The notes beneath the pieces are model-generated. The model did no database searches. It saw nothing but the letters and a program-made list of their open reading frames with translations, and was not told the origin of the DNA. Position numbers and translations under genes: made by a program. From a virus (lineage: Duplodnaviria > Caudoviricetes): a stretch of 24,249 nucleotides of DNA. Within the stretch, counting starts at the first letter, position 1, and every line of letters begins with the position of its first letter. The DNA lies in the IMG/VR virus record IMGVR_UViG_3300009495_000075, positions 1 to 24,249 of that record; one strand, 5' to 3'. Shown here in pieces: positions 12,332 through 24,249 of the stretch.

Positions 12332-15300
12332 ATGGCTAAAATTCAAAAGAACTTTATAAAAGGGCGAATGAATAAATCCGTTGATGAACGATTAGTTCCT
12401 CAAGGAGAATATATTGATGCTTTAAATGTTAGATTAGGTTCAACAGAAGGAACTGAAATAGGTGCTGTAGAAAATTCAAAAGGAAATGAACTTATAGTTG
12501 AGTTGATTTATGACGGAAATCCTTTAAGTAGCAATGCTAAATGTATTGGCGCTTATGAAGATGGTGTGAATGAAACAATTTATTGGTTTGTTAATGATGA
12601 ACAAAACATATCCTCTCCTACAGGTAATGTCGATTTAATTGTATCATATAACACAAGAACATCAATTTTATTTTATCATGTTGTTTCGACATCTGTTTTA
12701 AATTTTAATAAAGATTATTTAATAAATGGTATAAATTTAATAGATGATTTACTTTTTTTTACCGATAACTTAAATCCTCCAAGAAAAATAAACATAAACA
12801 GAACTTATGCTCAGCCTTTATTAGGAGTTGATCAAGTTACAGAACAAGATATAGGCGTAATTGTTGCTCCTCCTTTAAAAGCTCCTGTATTAAGTCAATT
12901 TCAGTTAGGTGGAGGTGAAAATTACATGGAAGATTTGTTTTTAAGTTTTGCTTATAGATGGCAATATGAAGACGGAGAATACTCAGCTCTTTCACCATTC
13001 AGTCAAGTTGCTTTTACACCTGGTCCTTTTCAGTTAAATTATGACACCTATGACAATGATTCAATGCAGAATATATTTAATAGTGTATCTATAAGTTTTG
13101 ACACAGGCGGTAAAAATGTAAAAGATGTAGATATTATTTTTAAATTTTCTACAAGTCAATCGGTAAATGTAATTGAAAGATATAACAAAGTAAATCAAGG
13201 ATGGTTAGACAATGTTAATCAATCTATTGATTTTACTAATAAAAAAATATATACAACACTTCCAGAAGAACAATTGCTTAGGCTTTATGATAATGTTCCT
13301 AAAATAGCTCAAGCTCAAACCATTATGGGTAATAGGGTAATGTATGGTAATTATGTAGATGGGTATGATATTGTTAATGAAAACGGAAAACAAATATACT
13401 TAGACTATAATTTGTCTTTAATTACGGAAAGCTTAACAAATGAAGAAATTCAAGGTGTTAGATCTAATTATTCATATGATATAGACGTATTAACTTCTGT
13501 TGTAAATGCTAAAGCTTCAATTAATTTTGGTGGATTAGATTTAATTAATGGCTCTCAAATAGGTATTGTATTTAATTATCAAAGTCAATTGTTTGGTGGA
13601 GATCCTACATATGATGACGGAACACAGCCTTTAAATCAATTTGATTATACTTTTTTATTTAATTTACAACAAGACTATCCTAGTGTTCACGATCTAGTGA
13701 CTAGTCCAGAGTTTGTAGCTGCAGTATCTGATTTTGAAGTTAATTGTGCAGATGGCTTTTCAGTGACTGATGTTTATAATTGTGGTATAACTTCTAAATC
13801 TGGATGGATTTTTGATGGATTTGGAGTAACAACTACAAATCAAGGATTCGTTATAGAAAGTTCTTTAGGTAGTGATATTGTAAGTATAATAATACCAGGC
13901 TTAAGATTTGAAGAAATTGCAAATCCAGGGACTTTTGCTTATGAATATTTAAGCTCTATAGAAACTACAGGATTATATTCATTAACTTCTTCTAAACAAA
14001 GCTTACACAGTAATAGAGATTATGAAATTGCTGTTGTCTATATGGATGATTATGGAAGAAGTACAACTGCTTTAGTTGATACTAATAATACAGTTTATGT
14101 TCCTTGTCAAAATTCTATAAACAAAAACACTATAAGGGTTCAGTTAAATAGTTACCCTCCTTTTTGGGCAACAAAATATAAATTTGTTGTTAAAGAATCA
14201 AAAACAGGATATAGAACAATTTATTCTAATATATTTTTTAGAGAAGAAACTACAGGAGATGTATACTATAAACTAGAAGGTGATAATAGAGATAAAGTTA
14301 AAGATAACGAATCTTTATATGTAAAAGCTGATACAGGTGGCCCTGTTTTAAGGTGTACAAAAACAAAAGTATTAGAATTTGGTTCTAAAACTGAAGATTT
14401 TTTATGTACTAAAGATGCAGATGGAGTTGTAATTTCAGGTACTTGTGGACAACCTTCAGGTACTTACATGAAATTAAAGCCATCTAATTTTAACGCTAAT
14501 TTAGTTGAAAATGCATTTATAGATAGGACTGATAACGGAGGGCCTTCAAGCTATAGTAGCGCTAGTGTTTCTTGTAGTGTAGAAGATGAAACTAACCCTG
14601 GTAATTATTTAGATATTGATATTCCTGCGGGTTCTTTAATAACTTTTAGATTTACTACTACTAGGTTTGAAAGAGGAAGTAGATGCGGAGGAAGAACTTA
14701 TGATTATGATAAAACATTTACATCAGGAAATGATTACACTGATTTAGCTTCATTTGTTACAGGAGAGCAAATAGATTTTACAAACGGAATTTCAGGAGGT
14801 ACTGACAGTACTATAAATGTAATTAATCAACCTAATACCATATACCCATTTTACACTTCATTGGCAAGTGGTGGTCAAACGTATATTACTTTTCAAAGAG
14901 ATGCTTCAGACAACAGGCTTTTATTAGTAATTCAAACAGGAACACCTAAATGCGGGGGAGTAGATCAAAGAGGATCTTATGAAAGTGTTCAAATAATATT
15001 AAACAGAGCGGCAACTTTAAATATATTTGAGACAGAACCAATTCAAGCAAATGATGAATTATATTATGAAAACGAACAAGTTTTTGATATTTCAGGTGGT
15101 TTTCATTTATCAGGTAATTCTGCATTTGATCAAAATCAAACCGCAGTTCTTCCTGCTGTAATAGATTTAACATTTTTTAATTGTTATGTTTTTGGAAATG
15201 GTGTAGAGTCAGATAAAGTTCTTGACGCTCTAACAACTCCTACATTATCGTTAGGAGAAAAAGTTACTTCAGTTTCTGAAGAGGAATATAAAGAAATTCA

Positions 15301-16921
15301 TAGATTATCAGATATTACTTATAGTGGAGTGTACAATCAAGAAAGTGGATTAAATAAATTAAATCAATTTAATCTAGCTTTATCAAATTTTAAGACTTTA
15401 GAAAGATCATTTGGGCCATTAAGAAAATTGCATTCAAGGCAGACTGATATTCTTGCTTTACAAGAAGATAAGATATCGTATGTATTGGTTGGTAAAAATT
15501 TATTATCTGATGCTGCTGCAGGAGGAGCTATAACTTCTATACCTGAAGTTTTAGGAACTCAGTTAGCAAGAATTGAAGAATTTGGAATAAGTAATAATCC
15601 TGAAAGTTTTAGTTCATATGGTTATGATGTTTATTTTACAGACTCAAAAAGAAGTAGTGTAATTAATTTAAAAGGAGGATCTGCTAAATCAGATCAATTA
15701 AATGTTATTTCTCAAGCGGGAATGCGTAGTTGGTTTAGAGATTTATTTACTGAAGCATTACCTACTCAGAAACTAGGTGGATTTGATCCTTACATGAATG
15801 AGTATGTGTTATCATCAACAGAAACATTAGTTCCTACGCCACCAATTGAAAGACAATGTGGTTATCAATTGATTCAACAATCTAGTAATGATGCAGTTAT
15901 TTTTAATTTAAATTTAACCACAATTATAGGTGATGTAGATTTAAACTATAATGTATCTGTAGGCTCTGTAAATATTAAAGTAGTATACAATGGTATTACA
16001 GAAATAGATAATATTGTAACAGGAGTAGGGGTTTTACAGTTTACAAAAAATTTAAATAATCCTATTTTAGCTCAAGTATTTATTACTCCTCAAGCATTAT
16101 CAACATACGACATTACATTCGGATGTTCTGTTGCACCACGATTAACAGTAAAACAGATTGTAATTAATAACGCAGGAGACGTTAGTTTAACAACTACTTC
16201 AAGATATAATTGGAAACTAGGCAGTGATTTAAGTCCTTTTAGCACTAATTCAATTGTTTTAGAATCTGATGGAATTTCTTTGTTTGTAGAAGAAACAGGT
16301 GAACAGTCATTTGGATCAATACCTACTGAAGGATCGGTAGTTAATATGCAAATGATACAAGAGAAAGGACAAACATTTGTGTTTAATGCGGCTAGTGATA
16401 ATATGAAGTATTTAATTTCTAATGTAAATTATAATGAAACTGACATAAATACTTTAATTCCTTTATTAGTAAATTCTGGACCAGTTGTGGGAGGGCCTTT
16501 AAATTATGTGTCTAAATTTACTTATACTAATTTAACTAATCAAGATTATTTATATTTAGTATGGGATTTAAGAAGTCCTTCAGAATTAAGTTTTTGTTAT
16601 GATGCAACTTCAGCAATAAGTGCTTGTTGTGATTGTTCAACACCACCTGCTTTAACTTTATTTCCTATTGTCTTAGAGTATGGTAGTATAAGTTGTGCTG
16701 CAGTTTGTTCTAATTTTGGAGCAAATAATTCAGGCACTTTTTATGTAGACGTAGGGACACCTTCTGGAGGAGTATTTGCACTATCAACAAAAATATATTT
16801 AGATTCAGCTGGAACTTCTTTTGCGCCATCATTCTTTTATACGGATGGAACGGAATGTAGACCAGTGGATGGGAATGGTAATTTAGGAATAACATCAGGG
16901 TGCGGTGCGCCTCCACCATAA
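12332..16921 (+). CDS. Tail stabilization (muzzle/nozzle) protein, main part with C-terminal accessory domains
   Basis: F..GRMNKSVDERLVP.GEY.DALN, LLFFTDNLNPPRKIN, FAYRW.Y.DGEYS, GNRVMYGNY, FGISNNPESF, YFTD.KR motifs typical of crAss-like stabilization proteins. Confidence 0.8.
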   Translation: MAKIQKNFIKGRMNKSVDERLVPQGEYIDALNVRLGSTEGTEIGAVENSKGNELIVELIYDGNPLSSNAKCIGAYEDGVNETIYWFVNDEQNISSPTGNVDLIVSYNTRTSILFYHVVSTSVLNFNKDYLINGINLIDDLLFFTDNLNPPRKININRTYAQPLLGVDQVTEQDIGVIVAPPLKAPVLSQFQLGGGENYMEDLFLSFAYRWQYEDGEYSALSPFSQVAFTPGPFQLNYDTYDNDSMQNIFNSVSISFDTGGKNVKDVDIIFKFSTSQSVNVIERYNKVNQGWLDNVNQSIDFTNKKIYTTLPEEQLLRLYDNVPKIAQAQTIMGNRVMYGNYVDGYDIVNENGKQIYLDYNLSLITESLTNEEIQGVRSNYSYDIDVLTSVVNAKASINFGGLDLINGSQIGIVFNYQSQLFGGDPTYDDGTQPLNQFDYTFLFNLQQDYPSVHDLVTSPEFVAAVSDFEVNCADGFSVTDVYNCGITSKSGWIFDGFGVTTTNQGFVIESSLGSDIVSIIIPGLRFEEIANPGTFAYEYLSSIETTGLYSLTSSKQSLHSNRDYEIAVVYMDDYGRSTTALVDTNNTVYVPCQNSINKNTIRVQLNSYPPFWATKYKFVVKESKTGYRTIYSNIFFREETTGDVYYKLEGDNRDKVKDNESLYVKADTGGPVLRCTKTKVLEFGSKTEDFLCTKDADGVVISGTCGQPSGTYMKLKPSNFNANLVENAFIDRTDNGGPSSYSSASVSCSVEDETNPGNYLDIDIPAGSLITFRFTTTRFERGSRCGGRTYDYDKTFTSGNDYTDLASFVTGEQIDFTNGISGGTDSTINVINQPNTIYPFYTSLASGGQTYITFQRDASDNRLLLVIQTGTPKCGGVDQRGSYESVQIILNRAATLNIFETEPIQANDELYYENEQVFDISGGFHLSGNSAFDQNQTAVLPAVIDLTFFNCYVFGNGVESDKVLDALTTPTLSLGEKVTSVSEEEYKEIHRLSDITYSGVYNQESGLNKLNQFNLALSNFKTLERSFGPLRKLHSRQTDILALQEDKISYVLVGKNLLSDAAAGGAITSIPEVLGTQLARIEEFGISNNPESFSSYGYDVYFTDSKRSSVINLKGGSAKSDQLNVISQAGMRSWFRDLFTEALPTQKLGGFDPYMNEYVLSSTETLVPTPPIERQCGYQLIQQSSNDAVIFNLNLTTIIGDVDLNYNVSVGSVNIKVVYNGITEIDNIVTGVGVLQFTKNLNNPILAQVFITPQALSTYDITFGCSVAPRLTVKQIVINNAGDVSLTTTSRYNWKLGSDLSPFSTNSIVLESDGISLFVEETGEQSFGSIPTEGSVVNMQMIQEKGQTFVFNAASDNMKYLISNVNYNETDINTLIPLLVNSGPVVGGPLNYVSKFTYTNLTNQDYLYLVWDLRSPSELSFCYDATSAISACCDCSTPPALTLFPIVLEYGSISCAAVCSNFGANNSGTFYVDVGTPSGGVFALSTKIYLDSAGTSFAPSFFYTDGTECRPVDGNGNLGITSGCGAPPP

Positions 16922-16931
16922 AAACAAATAA

Positions 16932-17861
16932 ATGGCAACAACAGTAAATAAATACATTGATAGTAATGATTTTTTAACAGCATCTGCTGTTTTTGATGAC
17001 GTAAGTCTAACTATTCCATCTTCTGATGGATACTATCAAATTGATGGAATATATAGACAACAAGTCTCGGGTCTTTTATTAAGCGGATCTAGTTTATGCG
17101 AATCATGTGATGGTCAAGATTTAAGGTATAATGTTACAAGTGGTTCTGATTTATGCTGTGTAAGTGGAACTATATTTACATATTATTTTTCTCCAGGTGA
17201 TTCGTTTACCGATCCAAGTACAACTTTAATGTATTCAGACCAAGCTTTAACAACTTTAGCACCAGATGGATTTTATAATATTAGTCCATCAGGAGATTAT
17301 AGAGAGCAATCTTCAGGTGTATTAGGAGTTCTTACATCTTGTCCAAGTTGTTTTACATCTACAACTGTAGAGTATAGTTCAGTATCTGCTAATGATTTAT
17401 GTTGTGGATCTCCAACATCAGGAACTTATTATCTTGACTTTGGAACTACATTCTTAACAACAAGTAATTTATATACAGACACTTTAGGAACAATAGCACC
17501 AGATGGATTTTATAAAGAAATTTTGACAAACACATATAGAGAAATGGCACTTAGTGTTTTAGATTCACAGAATCCTTGTAATCCTTGTACTACTCAATCT
17601 TGGAGAGCTACAGAATGCGGAGGTGGAGGAGCAACATATTATTTAGATCAGTCAAATGGTTTTGATGGATCTTTATCTGTGATATTAGCTTATTCATATA
17701 ACATAGGTGATGTTGTTTGGGTAAAACAAACATCTACTGGAGTAATTACTTGTGCTGAAATACAGTCATTATCATCTACACCTCCTAATTATTTTATAGA
17801 TGAGGCGGCAAATAGCGGAAATGGACCTTATAGCAATTGTGTTTCTTGCGCAATACCTTAA
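16932..17861 (+). CDS. Cys-rich tandem repeat protein, putative tail accessory
   Basis: Three ~80 aa units with DG(F/Y)Y...YR...CxxC (DLCC in units 2 and 3) plus distinct C-terminal Cys domain. Confidence 0.75.
   Translation: MATTVNKYIDSNDFLTASAVFDDVSLTIPSSDGYYQIDGIYRQQVSGLLLSGSSLCESCDGQDLRYNVTSGSDLCCVSGTIFTYYFSPGDSFTDPSTTLMYSDQALTTLAPDGFYNISPSGDYREQSSGVLGVLTSCPSCFTSTTVEYSSVSANDLCCGSPTSGTYYLDFGTTFLTTSNLYTDTLGTIAPDGFYKEILTNTYREMALSVLDSQNPCNPCTTQSWRATECGGGGATYYLDQSNGFDGSLSVILAYSYNIGDVVWVKQTSTGVITCAEIQSLSSTPPNYFIDEAANSGNGPYSNCVSCAIP
17257..17515 (+). repeat. 22-bp direct repeat TAGCACCAGATGGATTTTATAA (17257-17278; 17494-17515)
   Basis: Identical copies 237 nt (79 codons) apart, both encoding APDGFY. 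Confidence 0.85.
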
Positions 17862-18680: not shown

Positions 18681-18688
18681 TATCTTTG
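18681..18688 (+). promoter_or_regulatory. -7 box TATCTTTG
   Basis: TAnnTTTG; 17-mer TTTTTTTGTATCTTTGT identical to 10674-10690; 5 nt before ATG. Confidence 0.75.
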
Positions 18689-18693
18689 TTTTA

Positions 18694-19104
18694 ATGAATT
18701 TCGAAGTAAGGAAATTAAATAATACTGATTATAATTTAATCTTAACAAAATGGTGGAAAGATTGGAGATGGACACCACCGCCTAAAGACTTTTTACCAGA
18801 GAATGGTGAAGGAGGATTTATTGTTTATGATAAAGAAATACCTGTTTGCGCAGGATTTATTTATGTAACTAATTCTAAAGTAGGATGGTGTGATTGGATT
18901 GTATCTAATTTTGATTATAAAAATAAAGAAAAAAGAAAAAAAGCATTGACATATTTAATAACAATATTAACAAATACATTGAAATTATCGGGTTGTAGAT
19001 ATTCATATGCTCTTTTAAAATCTAAATCTCTTATTGATCATTATAAAGAAAATGGTTACACTAAGGGGGATTCATATAATTCGGAAATGATAAAAACATT
19101 ATAA
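18694..19104 (+). CDS. GNAT-fold acetyltransferase-like protein
   Basis: GFIVY...PVCAGFIY beta hairpin, W..WIVSN, and terminal Y.ENGY match GNAT topology; position before ejection genes common in podoviruses. Confidence 0.6.
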   Translation: MNFEVRKLNNTDYNLILTKWWKDWRWTPPPKDFLPENGEGGFIVYDKEIPVCAGFIYVTNSKVGWCDWIVSNFDYKNKEKRKKALTYLITILTNTLKLSGCRYSYALLKSKSLIDHYKENGYTKGDSYNSEMIKTL

Positions 19105-19105
19105 T

Positions 19106-20056
19106 ATGGCAGCATTTACAACAATAGCAGCGTATACAGTAGCAGTAGGAGGCAATGTAGCAAAAGGGATTTTAGCTGGAGACTCAGCTACAGTTGCTTC
19201 TAGAGAAGCAGGAAGATTACGGCTTCAGCAAGAAGAATTAGAACAAGAATCAGTCGCTAGACTAGAAGAAAATTTTTACGATGCTGTAAGAGCAACTACA
19301 GATATTTATGACAAGCAGTTACAGGCAGGAAATGTAATGGGTTCTCAAATACTAGAAGCTGTTCAAGAAGGAGATCAGAGAGGTGTAGCAGCAGGGGCAG
19401 GAAAAGTTAAACAAGCTTCAGATGCTACGTTTGAAAAAAGTGCCGATAAAATGGCTCAACAAAAATTAATTATAGACATGGCTCGTGCTAAGGCAGGAGA
19501 AATGTCTGCTTCAGAAATAGCTAAGTTACAAGATGATAGAGCGGCAGCAGCAGGATTGAAAGCTGCTGGATTAACAGCTCAAGCGAATAAATTAAAAGGA
19601 GAGGCTACGGGTTCATTTATTGACGCAGGTGCTAGCGCACTACAAGCGGGAATTTCACTAGCAGGATCTATACAAGGTAAAGCTGGCCAAGACGCTATAG
19701 ATAGTGGATTAGATAAAGCTACAGTAGCTAAAATGACCCCAAAAGAAATAAGACAATATAATAGAGGTGATTCTGAAGGAATATTAGCTTCAGTAAATGC
19801 TGGAAGCAGATCTTTACCAGGAGTAAGCTCTGAAACTCAAGAATTGGCAGGTATACCGACAGAAAACACACTGACAAACGAAAATAATGAAGATTTATCA
19901 GAATCTCCGATGTCATTTAACATTAATGGTGCTAACTTTAGTTTTAATGAAATAACGGATTTAGCTAATAAACAACAGGCGGAAAGAGAAGAAGCCGCTA
20001 AAACTGACATTGAGAAACTTTTAGAAACCTTTTCGTCAGGTATAACAAGATTTTAA
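19106..20056 (+). CDS. Internal virion/ejection protein 1
   Basis: Ala/Gly/Gln-rich helical protein with weakly hydrophobic N-terminus and a second small-residue segment; synteny. Confidence 0.6.
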   Translation: MAAFTTIAAYTVAVGGNVAKGILAGDSATVASREAGRLRLQQEELEQESVARLEENFYDAVRATTDIYDKQLQAGNVMGSQILEAVQEGDQRGVAAGAGKVKQASDATFEKSADKMAQQKLIIDMARAKAGEMSASEIAKLQDDRAAAAGLKAAGLTAQANKLKGEATGSFIDAGASALQAGISLAGSIQGKAGQDAIDSGLDKATVAKMTPKEIRQYNRGDSEGILASVNAGSRSLPGVSSETQELAGIPTENTLTNENNEDLSESPMSFNINGANFSFNEITDLANKQQAEREEAAKTDIEKLLETFSSGITRF

Positions 20057-20061
20057 TAGTT

Positions 20062-21786
20062 ATGGGTAATAAATTAGAAGCAACAAGAGCAGCAATTGCA
20101 GCAGGTTTTACAGGAGTTAGTGATCCTAGCTCTACTCTTTCTGCAATAAGCAAAGGAGCAAAAGATATTGCAGCTTGGAAAAAAAACTTAGATGCTCAAA
20201 AATTAAAATTAAAAACAGACACCGCTAAAATAGCTAGAGATTTAGAAAAAGAAACTTATGAAAATCTACCCTCTAATGCAACCTATCAACAAAGTATATT
20301 AAAAGGATTAGCCGATTACAAAGAACAATTATACATCAATACAGCTTTAGTTCAAAAAGGAATATTAAAACCTGAAGATAACTTGATAATGCAAGAGAAT
20401 GCAAAAGAAAGTTTTAGTATAATGTCTAAATTAGTAAAAGACAACGAAAAAGATTATGCTCAAAATCAAAGAGAACTTAGTGGTTATTATCAAACAAACG
20501 ACAAAGGAGAACAAGTTTTTGTAAAACCTACAGCTGGAGCGGGTCAATTAGCTTTATCAGAACAATATAATAGATTAAACGATTCAAGTCTATACGCTAT
20601 TACTTTTGGAAATGATGGAATGGGTAGGATTAATTATTATAAAACAAAAATTGATAAACCAAGTAATACTAGAATTTTAGATTTAGATAAAAATGGTAAT
20701 CCTCAAATTGATCCTAATGTACCAAGTCAAAGTGTCTTGTCTTTAAAAGGAGGAAGGAATCAAAAAATGGCAAGAATATATATTAATGATGAAGTTGAAA
20801 GATTAACAGGTAAAAACACGGCATTTGATAGAAGTTTTCAAACATTTGTAGAAACAGATAAGACAACAGGTAAATTTATAGGTACTCTTGAAGATAATTT
20901 AAAAAACAAAGAAGGTATTGTAGGTATTATAAACAATGCCGTTTCTGCAGTAAATGTCAATCCAGCTAATATTTTAAGTATATTATCTGATAATGGGCCT
21001 GGTGAACAACAATCTAAACCATTAAATGAACTGGACTATGGATTGTTAAGTGATAAAGAAAAAAATGAAAGGTTAGAGTATTCTTATATTGATAAAAAAG
21101 GTCAAAGACAAATTGGTGTAAAAAGTAAATATATTCAGTTAAAAACTTCTAGTAATCAAACTATAGTTCCAATACTATCTGAAGAAGATAGACTTGCAGC
21201 AGAAAGAATTTCTTACACGGCTATCTATGATTCTTTAGGAAGAAAATTTACTAGAGGTGTTGTAGATCCTGAGATAGCTATTGAAGCTAGAAAAGCAGCA
21301 GCAACTCAACAACAAGAATTTACTGAAAAGGAAAAAGAAAAAGATAGACAATTACAGAGGGATCTATATGCCTCAAAAAATCAAGATTTTGTAGAAACCT
21401 ATTCAGGGTTAGATAATATAGCTATTGAACTTGACGGTACGAAAATTACAACTGCTGTAGATTTAATTGGAAATATTAGCAACTCAACAAAAAAAGATGA
21501 AGATGACTTAGCGTTTGTAGGTCGAAAAATTGTAGATAAAGCTCTGACTTTATATCCTGAATTAAAGGGATTAGATGTTGAATTAAAAGGAAAAGATGTA
21601 ATGGGTGTAGATGATGATACACTAGAGATATTTGTTGACGGTAAATTATATGACACAATTCAAGAAGGTAAAAGCGATAGTGAAAATCAGCAGTGGTTAC
21701 TGAAAAGTTTAGATAAAATATTTAGAGAGCAATCAAATAAAAATTTACAAACAATAAAAGAAGACGCATTCGGAAAACCAATATAA
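20062..21786 (+). CDS. Internal virion/ejection protein 2
   Basis: 574 aa hydrophilic, Cys-free; synteny between ejection-type genes. Confidence 0.55.
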   Translation: MGNKLEATRAAIAAGFTGVSDPSSTLSAISKGAKDIAAWKKNLDAQKLKLKTDTAKIARDLEKETYENLPSNATYQQSILKGLADYKEQLYINTALVQKGILKPEDNLIMQENAKESFSIMSKLVKDNEKDYAQNQRELSGYYQTNDKGEQVFVKPTAGAGQLALSEQYNRLNDSSLYAITFGNDGMGRINYYKTKIDKPSNTRILDLDKNGNPQIDPNVPSQSVLSLKGGRNQKMARIYINDEVERLTGKNTAFDRSFQTFVETDKTTGKFIGTLEDNLKNKEGIVGIINNAVSAVNVNPANILSILSDNGPGEQQSKPLNELDYGLLSDKEKNERLEYSYIDKKGQRQIGVKSKYIQLKTSSNQTIVPILSEEDRLAAERISYTAIYDSLGRKFTRGVVDPEIAIEARKAAATQQQEFTEKEKEKDRQLQRDLYASKNQDFVETYSGLDNIAIELDGTKITTAVDLIGNISNSTKKDEDDLAFVGRKIVDKALTLYPELKGLDVELKGKDVMGVDDDTLEIFVDGKLYDTIQEGKSDSENQQWLLKSLDKIFREQSNKNLQTIKEDAFGKPI

Positions 21787-21787
21787 A

Positions 21788-24249
21788 ATGGATAAACTAC
21801 AAGCGCTTTACAAAAGCTACCAGGAATCAGGGCTATTAAGTAGTGAAACTACTTTTGATGAATTTAAATCAGCAGATGAATCTGTAAGAAAAAGTTTATA
21901 TGACCAAGGAGTTAACAATAAAATATTAAGCGTTGAAACAGGATTTGATCTTTTTTCTTCAGCTTGGTCTGAAAAAAAAAATCAAGTCGACACTTTACCT
22001 TTAGATTTTCCAGAGGAAGTTACGGAGTCTATTATAGAAACGGAAACACAAGATGGTGTTGTGGATTCTTTAGATCAACCACCAATTGAATATTTAGATT
22101 CAGATTTTGAAGAATTAAAAAAAATATCTACACGAACAGAAGTTCCTTCTGTGTTCCAAAGTCCAGCTTCAATTAGGGCTAAAATGTTAAGTGAGCAAAA
22201 TGTTGAAATAGATTTAAATAAAAAAGAAAAACTTTTATCTGATTTTAACATAAAAAAATCTTTAGAAAAAAAAATTATAGATCAATTAATTATTGACAAA
22301 GCTTTACAAGGAAATAAAAATGCTATTAATAAACTAGAAAAAATAGCTGTTTCCAATCCAGAGGTTTATAAAAATAAAATAAAAACAAAAAATTTAGACA
22401 AGCCTTTTGCTTATGAAGATAAATCTCAATTAGTCGAAATAGAAGGTTCTGATTTAGACAATATGTATAATTCAGAAAGTTTAAAAACAATTAAAGGTTT
22501 TAATTTAAAAGATTTTGACGGCTATTTAAATGATCAAGGGTATAAAGAAAATTACTTAGAATTATTAAACGAAGAGACTTTAGCTGAAGACGGAAGAAGT
22601 TTTGATTATAGTGGTCAATACAATCCTTCTTTAGCGGCTGAAAGATTAAAATTAGAATACATTACTAACTATGTGAATAATCAAATAGAAAGAAACGTAG
22701 AATCCCAAGTTTTAAATTATCAATTAAATAATGAAGGGAAAAATCCTTCTTTAGATGGAATTAAGTTGTCTTATAGTTCGGGGATAGATGAAAAAGCTTT
22801 AACTAATTATATAGAAAAAGAGCTACCTGTAATCACTTCCAAGTTAAAACAAAGAGATGTAGCCAACCAGGAGCTTTATCAAGACATGAAAAATGGAGAT
22901 GTAAGTGCTGTAGGTCAAGCGTTTAAACAAGGATGGAGATCTGTTGAAGATAGATTAGCTAGTTTTAGCGCAGGAACTTATGATTTTATTGGAATGGATA
23001 GTGTGGCCGATGAAATTAGAATGAGTCAGGCTGAGACTGAATTGAATCGAGAAGATTTCATGAGATATGCTTATGCAAGTGGGAAAAAAACTACAGTAAA
23101 TGGAACTCAATATTTAGTAGATGATCAAAACCAAATATATGATACAGATTTAGGGATAAGAGTGACTAATGTTTTAACTCCAAATAAATCAAAACAAATA
23201 TATGCCGACGTAGAAAAAAATGGAGAAGAAAGTTCTAGTTTAAGTTTAACAGGCGGTGCTATAATTACAACAGGAATAGCGGCAGATGTTGTTCTTCAAT
23301 TAGGATTACAAAGAGGTGTAGGAATTGCAGGCAAAGGATTAGGTGCATTTACAGGTGCATTTGATACGGGTAAAAAAATTCAAAAATTAATGTCTTATGT
23401 TCCCATGAAAGCTACTACTGCTTCAGCTATGATTGCTCAAGGAACTTTATTTTCTACAAATTTATCAGAACAAACAAGAAAACAGGCGTTAGAGGCGGGT
23501 TTATCTATTGAAAAAGCAGAGGAACTTTCTGTTGTAGCAGGACAACAAGGATATTTATTAGGTACTCTTACTGCTCCATTATCTACTCAAACTGTAACAA
23601 TGGATAAGATATTTGGGAAAAAAGCAACTGAAAAAATAGCTACAGAAGCTTTAGAAACTTATCAAAAAGGAGGTATAACTGGATTAAAAGGTTATTGGAA
23701 TAAAGCTCTTCAAAAAGCAAAAATATATGGAGCAGAAGGTGGAAGAGAGGTTTTTCAAGAAAACGTACAGCAAGCAGGACAAGCATTTTCTATTGCGCCT
23801 AACGTAAATGAAATAGCGGGTAAAGAAATAATGACTAATACAATAAGTGGAGATGAGTACATGAACACTACACTCTTGTCTTTAGCAGCAGGAATATTGA
23901 TGCCTTTTGCTGGGGATATAAGTACTTCAGCTAAAACTTCATTTAACAACAGATTTAGACCAGGGGTTGCTGCCAGAGATAAAATGAATTCATTGTATAC
24001 GTTGTCTCAAGACGTTGACAAAACAACTGATTTATTAAACTCTCAAGTAACTAAAGGATTATATACCGAAAAGCAAGTGCAAGAGATTTTAAAAGACATT
24101 GAGGTTTTTAGGAACACAGTAAATTCTATTCCGACTAATTTATCACCTGAAACATCTTTGTCGGTTATGTCTGATATAAATGAAATAAAAAAACAAGAAG
24201 AATTAAAAAAGCAAAGAGATCCTGCTTTTCATGAATCTATAGATAATAA
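21788..24249 (+). CDS. Large internal virion/ejection protein (partial, >820 aa; absent from ORF track)
   Basis: ATG 21788 (MDKLQALYKS...), no stop in the stretches translated and still in frame at window end; Gly/Ala hydrophobic segments and EGGREVFQENVQQ motif. Confidence 0.8.
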   Translation, partial: MDKLQALYKSYQESGLLSSETTFDEFKSADESVRKSLYDQGVNNKILSVETGFDLFSSAWSEKKNQVDTLPLDFPEEVTESIIETETQDGVVDSLDQPPIEYLDSDFEELKKISTRTEVPSVFQSPASIRAKMLSEQNVEIDLNKKEKLLSDFNIKKSLEKKIIDQLIIDKALQGNKNAINKLEKIAVSNPEVYKNKIKTKNLDKPFAYEDKSQLVEIEGSDLDNMYNSESLKTIKGFNLKDFDGYLNDQGYKENYLELLNEETLAEDGRSFDYSGQYNPSLAAERLKLEYITNYVNNQIERNVESQVLNYQLNNEGKNPSLDGIKLSYSSGIDEKALTNYIEKELPVITSKLKQRDVANQELYQDMKNGDVSAVGQAFKQGWRSVEDRLASFSAGTYDFIGMDSVADEIRMSQAETELNREDFMRYAYASGKKTTVNGTQYLVDDQNQIYDTDLGIRVTNVLTPNKSKQIYADVEKNGEESSSLSLTGGAIITTGIAADVVLQLGLQRGVGIAGKGLGAFTGAFDTGKKIQKLMSYVPMKATTASAMIAQGTLFSTNLSEQTRKQALEAGLSIEKAEELSVVAGQQGYLLGTLTAPLSTQTVTMDKIFGKKATEKIATEALETYQKGGITGLKGYWNKALQKAKIYGAEGGREVFQENVQQAGQAFSIAPNVNEIAGKEIMTNTISGDEYMNTTLLSLAAGILMPFAGDISTSAKTSFNNRFRPGVAARDKMNSLYTLSQDVDKTTDLLNSQVTKGLYTEKQVQEILKDIEVFRNTVNSIPTNLSPETSLSVMSDINEIKKQEELKKQRDPAFHESIDN
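21972..22089 (+). other. Candidate programmed frameshift site (A10) and -1 frame extension
   Basis: A10 at 21972-21981; -1 frame open 21973-22089 between two TGA stops, no ATG. Confidence 0.55.

Follow-up and report, generated by a model that had tools for sequence, protein, structure and literature searches.

A conserved A10 run and an overlapping -1 frame near the start of a large phage gene, a candidate site of transcriptional slippage

The large gene that closes a 24-kb linear virus record of 30% G+C (the window, meaning the whole 24,249-nucleotide stretch analyzed, in which lysis, terminase, portal, capsid and tail genes are present) carries near its start a run of ten A's that opens a second, overlapping reading frame in -1 (Table 1). 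The run is conserved among syntenic genes of related phages, where the -1 frame stays open and shows the substitution pattern of a protein. We propose that the host RNA polymerase slips on A10 and adds one A to some transcripts, that slipped transcripts would be translated into a 100-residue protein (N-domain plus tail) beside the full-length virion protein, and that the run length would set a fixed ratio of short to long product. That transcriptional slippage on A10 yields the short protein beside the long one is, on the sequence evidence, the reading we think probable, with considerable room for doubt.

Table 1. Features of the window around the A10 run
Feature	Position	Strand	Description
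A10 run, inferred slip site	21972-21981	+	GAA AAA AAA AAT, codons 62-65 of the ORF from 21788
Hidden -1 frame	21973..22089	+	38 codons and TGA; cationic Gly/aromatic tail
N-domain common to both products	21788..21970	+	Codons 1-61, acidic (pI 4.5), predicted helical, exchanged among phages
0-frame acidic Ser/Thr/Glu linker	21983..22087	+	Same bases as the -1 tail
Large gene	21788..24247	+	Last ORF, open at the window end; 820 aa visible; inferred virion/ejection protein
Upstream synteny block	18694..21786	+	136-aa GNAT-like gene, 316-aa and 574-aa putative internal virion genes
TATCTTTG, Bacteroidota -7 promoter element match	18681..18688	+	Just before the GNAT-like gene, likely head of transcription unit

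The A10 run in the window and in related genes

A search for runs and a reading of the ORF bear out an earlier note on this DNA, made from the sequence alone, which had described the A10 as the longest A run in the window and placed it at codons 62-65. After a TGA at 21970-72 the -1 frame runs on for 38 codons, as that note had read it, with neither methionine nor an acidic residue before the stop at 22087-89, so that one extra A would produce a 100-residue protein combining an N-part of pI 4.5 with a tail of pI 11. The run length is not the assembly artefact of which the note had warned, because contigs from DNA runs belonging to two separate studies (X1 record 1, X5 record 16) span A10 without a gap; contigs of two RNA runs (X19, X20) do not reach the site. 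At least 38 codons are open in 6 of the 1019 -1 stretches across the window's 20 genes; the length of the frame was accordingly rejected as evidence, and the case rests on homologues.

The start of the large gene alone retrieved only one relative, and homologues were instead anchored on two upstream genes and then followed by synteny, with exclusion of loci that end before the large gene and of one locus with a different gene order (L181). This left 82 gene starts that differ from one another within their first 300 bases, among them the window's own and that of a near-identical copy. The run is A10 in 78 of them, an in-frame A9 in one, A13 in one and missing from two; wherever it is present (80 starts), the -1 frame extends over 20-51 codons, with a median of 37. 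Loss of the run or random -1 stops, the outcome named beforehand as contrary to the proposal, is thus not the general pattern. Two pattern scans that allowed any run length were added against a bias to intact genes. Every homologous match of the viral scan was A10 (37/37, of 97 viral matches, one false positive, L217, having been removed), and the 61 metagenome matches comprised 58 of A10, two of A11 and one of A12, with none shorter, the off-length three being copies that may be DNA or RNA (L292 and L325, A11; L329, A12). One of these, L325, has ten A10 twins.

Other runs of at least ten A's number five in 989 kb, and the A10 site is the sole run of nine or more A's in the whole genome of phi40:1, both strands considered; a second A10 in one genome (G001) is intergenic. 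Lys-Lys-Lys elsewhere in these genes is written entirely with AAA in 3 of 94 cases, although AAA makes up 75% of lysine codons. The run therefore bears the mark of purifying selection expected of a programmed slippage run, being exactly A10 in 78/82 while all-AAA lysine triplets are avoided elsewhere, and at ten A's it attains the homopolymer length of a transcriptional slippage site (about nine or more A/T in a coding region). Two separate lineages (L050, from 9680 onward; L173, from 9199 onward) lack the A run and have no tail-like frame in the stretches examined, so the run is not universally required.

The N-domain is common to both predicted products, as first proposed, but is not conserved among homologues: the 77 compared fall into 10 BLAST groups with no links between them, and 75/77 have a net negative charge. 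Five homologues (L009, L063, L075, L100, L108; first 130 codons) have a second copy of the N-domain motif in the 0 frame, directly behind the dual-coding stretch, which would give the short product one copy and the long product two.

The large gene exceeds 1632 aa in the near-identical L062, and its complete GenBank orthologues (elemoE, MW202828, phi40:1) are about 1700-3900 aa. The earlier label of ejection gene receives no support from families, as the protein has no match in Pfam or PHROG. Its putative identity as an ejection (internal virion) protein is drawn from gene order, from its size and from the presence in virions of its syntenic counterparts, phi18:3 gp123 and phi40:1 gp101 being MS/MS-detected structural proteins according to their record notes. 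Upstream, the 136-aa GNAT-like gene owes its acetyltransferase label solely to record MW202828 and has no Pfam match. Comparison of the window with near-identical L001 over 20062-24249 places 52 of 58 mismatches in the 3' part of the 574-aa gene (21200-21799), whose L001 counterpart ends differently, at 572 aa, and overlaps the next start; this part looks like a swapped or diversifying C-terminus. A 309-aa Cys-rich protein at 16932-17861 with repeated CxxC-type motifs has no PHROG match, and a similar Cys-rich segment closes the preceding 1529-aa tail protein (12332-16921). At the other end of the window a 51-aa hydrophobic ORF (44-199, +) overlaps the start of the M15 endolysin gene and may, with the 99-aa and 132-aa genes (the latter a weak holin match), complete the lysis cassette.

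The closest GenBank relatives are podoviruses of Flavobacteriia (Pachyviridae, Pervagoviridae, Elemovirus), in which gene order and run position match those of the window. The window's phage is uncultured and lies nearer to MW202828 (portal identity 67%) than to isolates of these groups (27-45%). Of 11 GenBank records examined, five (elemoE, elemoC, Gundel_1, phi40:1, Calle_2) have A10 with an open cationic -1 frame of ~27-46 codons, MW202828 has A11, in frame, and five have an A9 that splits the long gene: Cellulophaga phages phi46:3, phi18:3, phi13:2 and phi19:3 and Maribacter phage Panino (L134 12537-12845, L135 12412-12723, L137 12272-12535, L138 5205-5513 on the minus strand, L139 11555 onward). 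None of the 11 annotates a frameshift product. All five A9 records place the start of the large gene downstream; the four from Cellulophaga phages annotate as a short ORF the N-domain with its continuation in +1, and the Panino record has no annotation for the N-domain. The four Cellulophaga genomes were reportedly sequenced by 454. A search for independent copies of the Pachyviridae A9 site returned four records only, matching the four isolates in length. Panino was sequenced by nanopore only, according to PMC11590407. The A9 in these five records is probably a sequencing error, which is not certain because phi40:1, from the same collection as the Cellulophaga phages, has A10; the split genes are, in turn, probably mis-annotations, or else may mean that the long protein itself really requires slippage.

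Selection on the -1 frame and the predicted tail

To set an expectation for openness, each 0-frame protein and its own gene's codon usage were held fixed. On this basis 8.4 of 62 genes would keep -1 open over the 16 codons that follow the run, and all 62 do, a count that does not represent 62 independent events since the homologues are related, their spread over three named phage groups offsetting this only partly; over the 16 codons that precede it, -1 is open in 5 genes where 3.7 would be expected. Across 31 non-overlapping pairs, differences at 0-frame codon positions 3 and 2 stand at 80:80 in the overlap compared with 176:58 upstream and 471:166 downstream, an inverted codon-position signature (Fisher p=3e-5 for the 14 pairs with all three regions) in which the selection of pairs by tail likeness depresses the total rate of the overlap and leaves the 3:2 ratio unaffected.

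The pattern extends to individual residues. Two tail glycines are near-invariant (76/83 and 77/78) with several codons used, while the overlying 0-frame residue varies among E, V, D and G; -1 Tyr and Phe change codons as the 0 frame alternates between T and M or between S and L; and indels in the overlap preserve both frames. The alternative frame is thus open beyond expectation and selection acts at the amino-acid level, as dual coding predicts, and from these substitutions we conclude that the -1 frame is selected as protein. The 0-frame linker, judged by the same alignments, is constrained mainly to remain open and polar, its residues varying where -1 residues stay fixed. A comparison of homologues had been specified in advance by the earlier note, and its three expectations were borne out, namely a retained A10, an open -1 frame with conserved YG...W..GF and suppressed third-position variation in the 0 frame.

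Other particulars of the note fared less well. The TGA directly before the run is present here but is not conserved, a stop standing there in 33 of 67 genes; G-ending codons, said to be raised, are raised only mildly (0.175 against 0.125 over 62 genes, 0.15 against 0.10 here); and of the residues in which the tail was called rich, Gly (12.6 vs 4.7% in other -1 frames of these genes), Phe (11.5 vs 5.3%) and Trp (5.1 vs 2.7%) are enriched, whereas Arg, at 16.7% vs 15.9%, is about as frequent as in -1 frames of these genes generally. Neither the TGA nor the Arg content is distinctive, and both were rejected as evidence.

Tail alignment columns alternate strictly between hydrophobic and polar, basic or Gly positions in three segments, and the AlphaFold model from 57 tails has strands at 6-13, 16-23 and 26-32 (pLDDT 80, pTM 0.44), so that the tail is predicted to be a three-stranded amphipathic beta-meander. 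The model of a database protein in fused form, of low confidence (pLDDT 59), has four helices and the same three strands; the shortest tail variants retain only the last two strands and both glycines. The tails combine this alternation with Gly on the polar face, as strands of an oligomeric transmembrane beta-barrel might, but their hydrophobic cores span only ~5 residues. Searches of the tail against Pfam (including AP2), PHROGs, PDB, BFVD and the ESM Atlas returned no match at E<=0.001, the best Pfam value being 0.029; Foldseek against viral and PDB libraries was equally negative at E<=0.001, and tblastn against GenBank phages gave no match. An AP2-like or other family for the tail was rejected, as Pfam, PDB and the Atlas give it no support. 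A tail profile gave scores for elemoE (17.9 bits) and phi46:3 (22.9 bits), whereas the tails of Gundel_1, Panino, phi40:1, Calle_2 and MW202828 and the short two-strand tails went unrecognised; beyond the core group, therefore, only composition and pattern are held in common. Among 7999 candidates for a free-standing or long in-frame tail protein there were 6 matches, all of them shifted versions of the large gene itself, of 81-127 aa, which is weak evidence of absence. Database gene calls exist in both shifted frames but are few and fall in clusters of 1-6 members; these are probably read errors and not evidence of expression.

Routes to the second product

The earlier note had left open whether RNA polymerase slippage or a -1 ribosomal shift gives access to the frame. 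A recoding site is supported, and the evidence favors the transcriptional over the classical ribosomal route. Downstream of the run, RNA structure has a mean z of -0.03, with 5 of 70 sequences below -2 compared with 2 of 67 controls; the consensus fold on 65 sequences is empty, the window itself has z +0.98 (pseudoknot-free models throughout), and no conserved motif lies upstream. The slippery heptamer of a classical -1 ribosomal frameshift (A_AAA_AAA) is therefore present, in both codon phases, whereas its stimulator is not seen. Of the 78 A10 genes, 36 have two AAA codons and 42 have three, and phase 0 never occurs. On a tree of the neighboring gene (78 sequences, no bootstrap) the phase label changes 11 times, two of the changes being losses, against a shuffled mean of 27.6; such changes may reflect N-domain swaps. 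Polymerase slippage is favored over the ribosome because ten A's are kept in two codon phases with no RNA stimulator, and because A_AAA_AAA needs seven A's only, whereas bacterial RNA polymerase is described as slipping efficiently from nine (PMC5009743). A10 dnaX genes have been interpreted as slippage sites (PMC3711429). Against the transcriptional route, E. coli RNA polymerase is reported to prefer poly(T) to poly(A) as a place to slip (PMC6260861).

The Bacteroidota -7 element before the likely operon indicates the host polymerase. Its consensus is given as TANNTTTG (PMC6847099). The element occurs in 21 of 23 distinct upstream regions; window-wide, TANNTTTG is not enriched (41 found vs 41 expected). 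Matches lie in four intergenic gaps, at 1430, 7214, 10682 and 18681 (+), and two of them have TTTTTTTGTATCTTTG in common. The 18681 element ends five bases before the ATG, a spacing that suggests a nearly leaderless mRNA.

The strongest competitor, which we rate as a tentative but serious possibility, is that the same two products come from unaltered mRNA, through a -1 shift or sliding of the ribosome on A_AAA_AAA. The heptamer's presence in both phases agrees with this, as do the absence of phase 0 among the 80 runs, the sliding of E. coli ribosomes on consecutive AAA codons without a stimulator (as described in PMC4363877) and the known use of -1 ribosomal shifts by tailed phages (PMC5009743). 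A ribosomal route is nonetheless at odds with the lack of a conserved stem, consensus fold or upstream motif, and it leaves ten A's unexplained whether the run has two or three AAA codons.

We consider it improbable that there is no second protein, the site being a nucleotide-level signal (a pause, packaging or ejection site) or a Lys-rich/acidic linker with the open -1 frame as its by-product. The overlap DNA is more conserved than its flanks, relatives' contigs aligning there only, and openness in +1 likewise exceeds the simple expectation (34 vs 8 of 62 genes). However, 27.7 open +1 frames are expected once the -1 residues are held, and +1 lengths scatter from 10 to 65, so that the -1 constraint accounts for most of the openness in +1, and a functional +1 product was rejected. 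Substitutions synonymous in -1 where 0-frame residues change, indels that keep both frames, the absence of RNA structure and the avoidance of all-AAA codons in other Lys runs likewise run counter to a by-product.

Phase variation at the DNA level, in which replication slippage would create sub-populations encoding the short or the long protein only, could draw on the three A11/A12 metagenome copies (one with ten A10 twins), the shifted short forms that gene callers list on a few contigs and the five A9 isolate records, but seems very unlikely given consensus copies that are A10 in 37/37 and 58/61, shifted records that form clusters of 1-6 members in both shifted frames, as read errors would, the nanopore-only sequence of Panino and a loss of the long virion protein that would likely be lethal.

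Known systems and a possible role

Slippage on poly-A with a trans-frame product is already known from dnaX, P3N-PIPO and tssM. In dnaX the long product is likewise in the 0 frame and the short one follows poly-A slippage (PMC5009743, PMC3711429): tau and gamma of Thermus thermophilus arise through RNA-polymerase slippage on a 9-base A/T run (PMC5009743), and among the two-ORF dnaX genes of Antonov et al. 2013 A10 is reported in nine species (PMC3711429). In the Thermus gene both shifted frames stop at once and gamma is a truncation, whereas the phage -1 frame is a conserved domain of 20-51 residues in a viral gene. Potyvirus P3N-PIPO likewise joins a common N-part to a short trans-frame tail from an overlapping ORF through one added base (PMC5009743); it belongs, however, to an RNA virus with its own polymerase, whereas here the setting is a dsDNA phage, likely the host polymerase and A10, with no sequence likeness. 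In Citrobacter rodentium tssM1 (A11, type VI secretion) poly-A slippage yields two length variants of an envelope-machine protein whose ratio matters (PMC4256274), but there slippage restores the long form, while the phage gene has its long form in frame and would gain new sequence in the short one. Lambda gpG/gpGT tail chaperones and T7 gene 10A/10B also draw two structural products in a set ratio from one phage gene (PMC5009743), by ribosomal shifts at X_XXY_YYZ-type sites near the 3' end that extend the protein. The A10 run lies instead at codon 27-118 of a giant gene, and its product would be cut to about 100 aa. The open-licence literature searched contained no paper on this element and no report of slippage leading, early in a giant phage virion gene, into a conserved new domain.

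A role can be suggested with little confidence. The short protein may follow the long one via the N-domain, probably into the particle, where the aromatic face of the tail would pack on the host envelope or on its own copies during DNA ejection; we hold this as a guess of some plausibility that falls short of probable. The tail may alternatively serve at the lysis stage or bind DNA. More speculative still, and in our judgment unlikely as a whole, is that throughout an abundant aquatic lineage of Bacteroidota podoviruses slippage of the host polymerase on a tuned A10 in the giant ejection gene makes an unannotated virion mini-protein whose beta-hairpin tails form an outer-membrane channel, or wedge into an outer-membrane machine, for entry of the genome and the long protein.

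The short protein would be a conserved product so far missing from the annotation of Pachyviridae, Pervagoviridae, Elemovirus and many uncultured relatives. Its tail matches no known family, and cultured phage-host pairs carry the site. The A9 in five GenBank genomes also explains annotation trouble in which a large virion gene was split or mis-started. If the route is transcriptional, the phage would be using the error rate of its host's polymerase to fix the proportion of the two proteins that one gene yields, and if the channel reading is true, the tails would represent a new family of envelope-breaching proteins, made through a recoding route unreported for phage structural genes in the literature searched.
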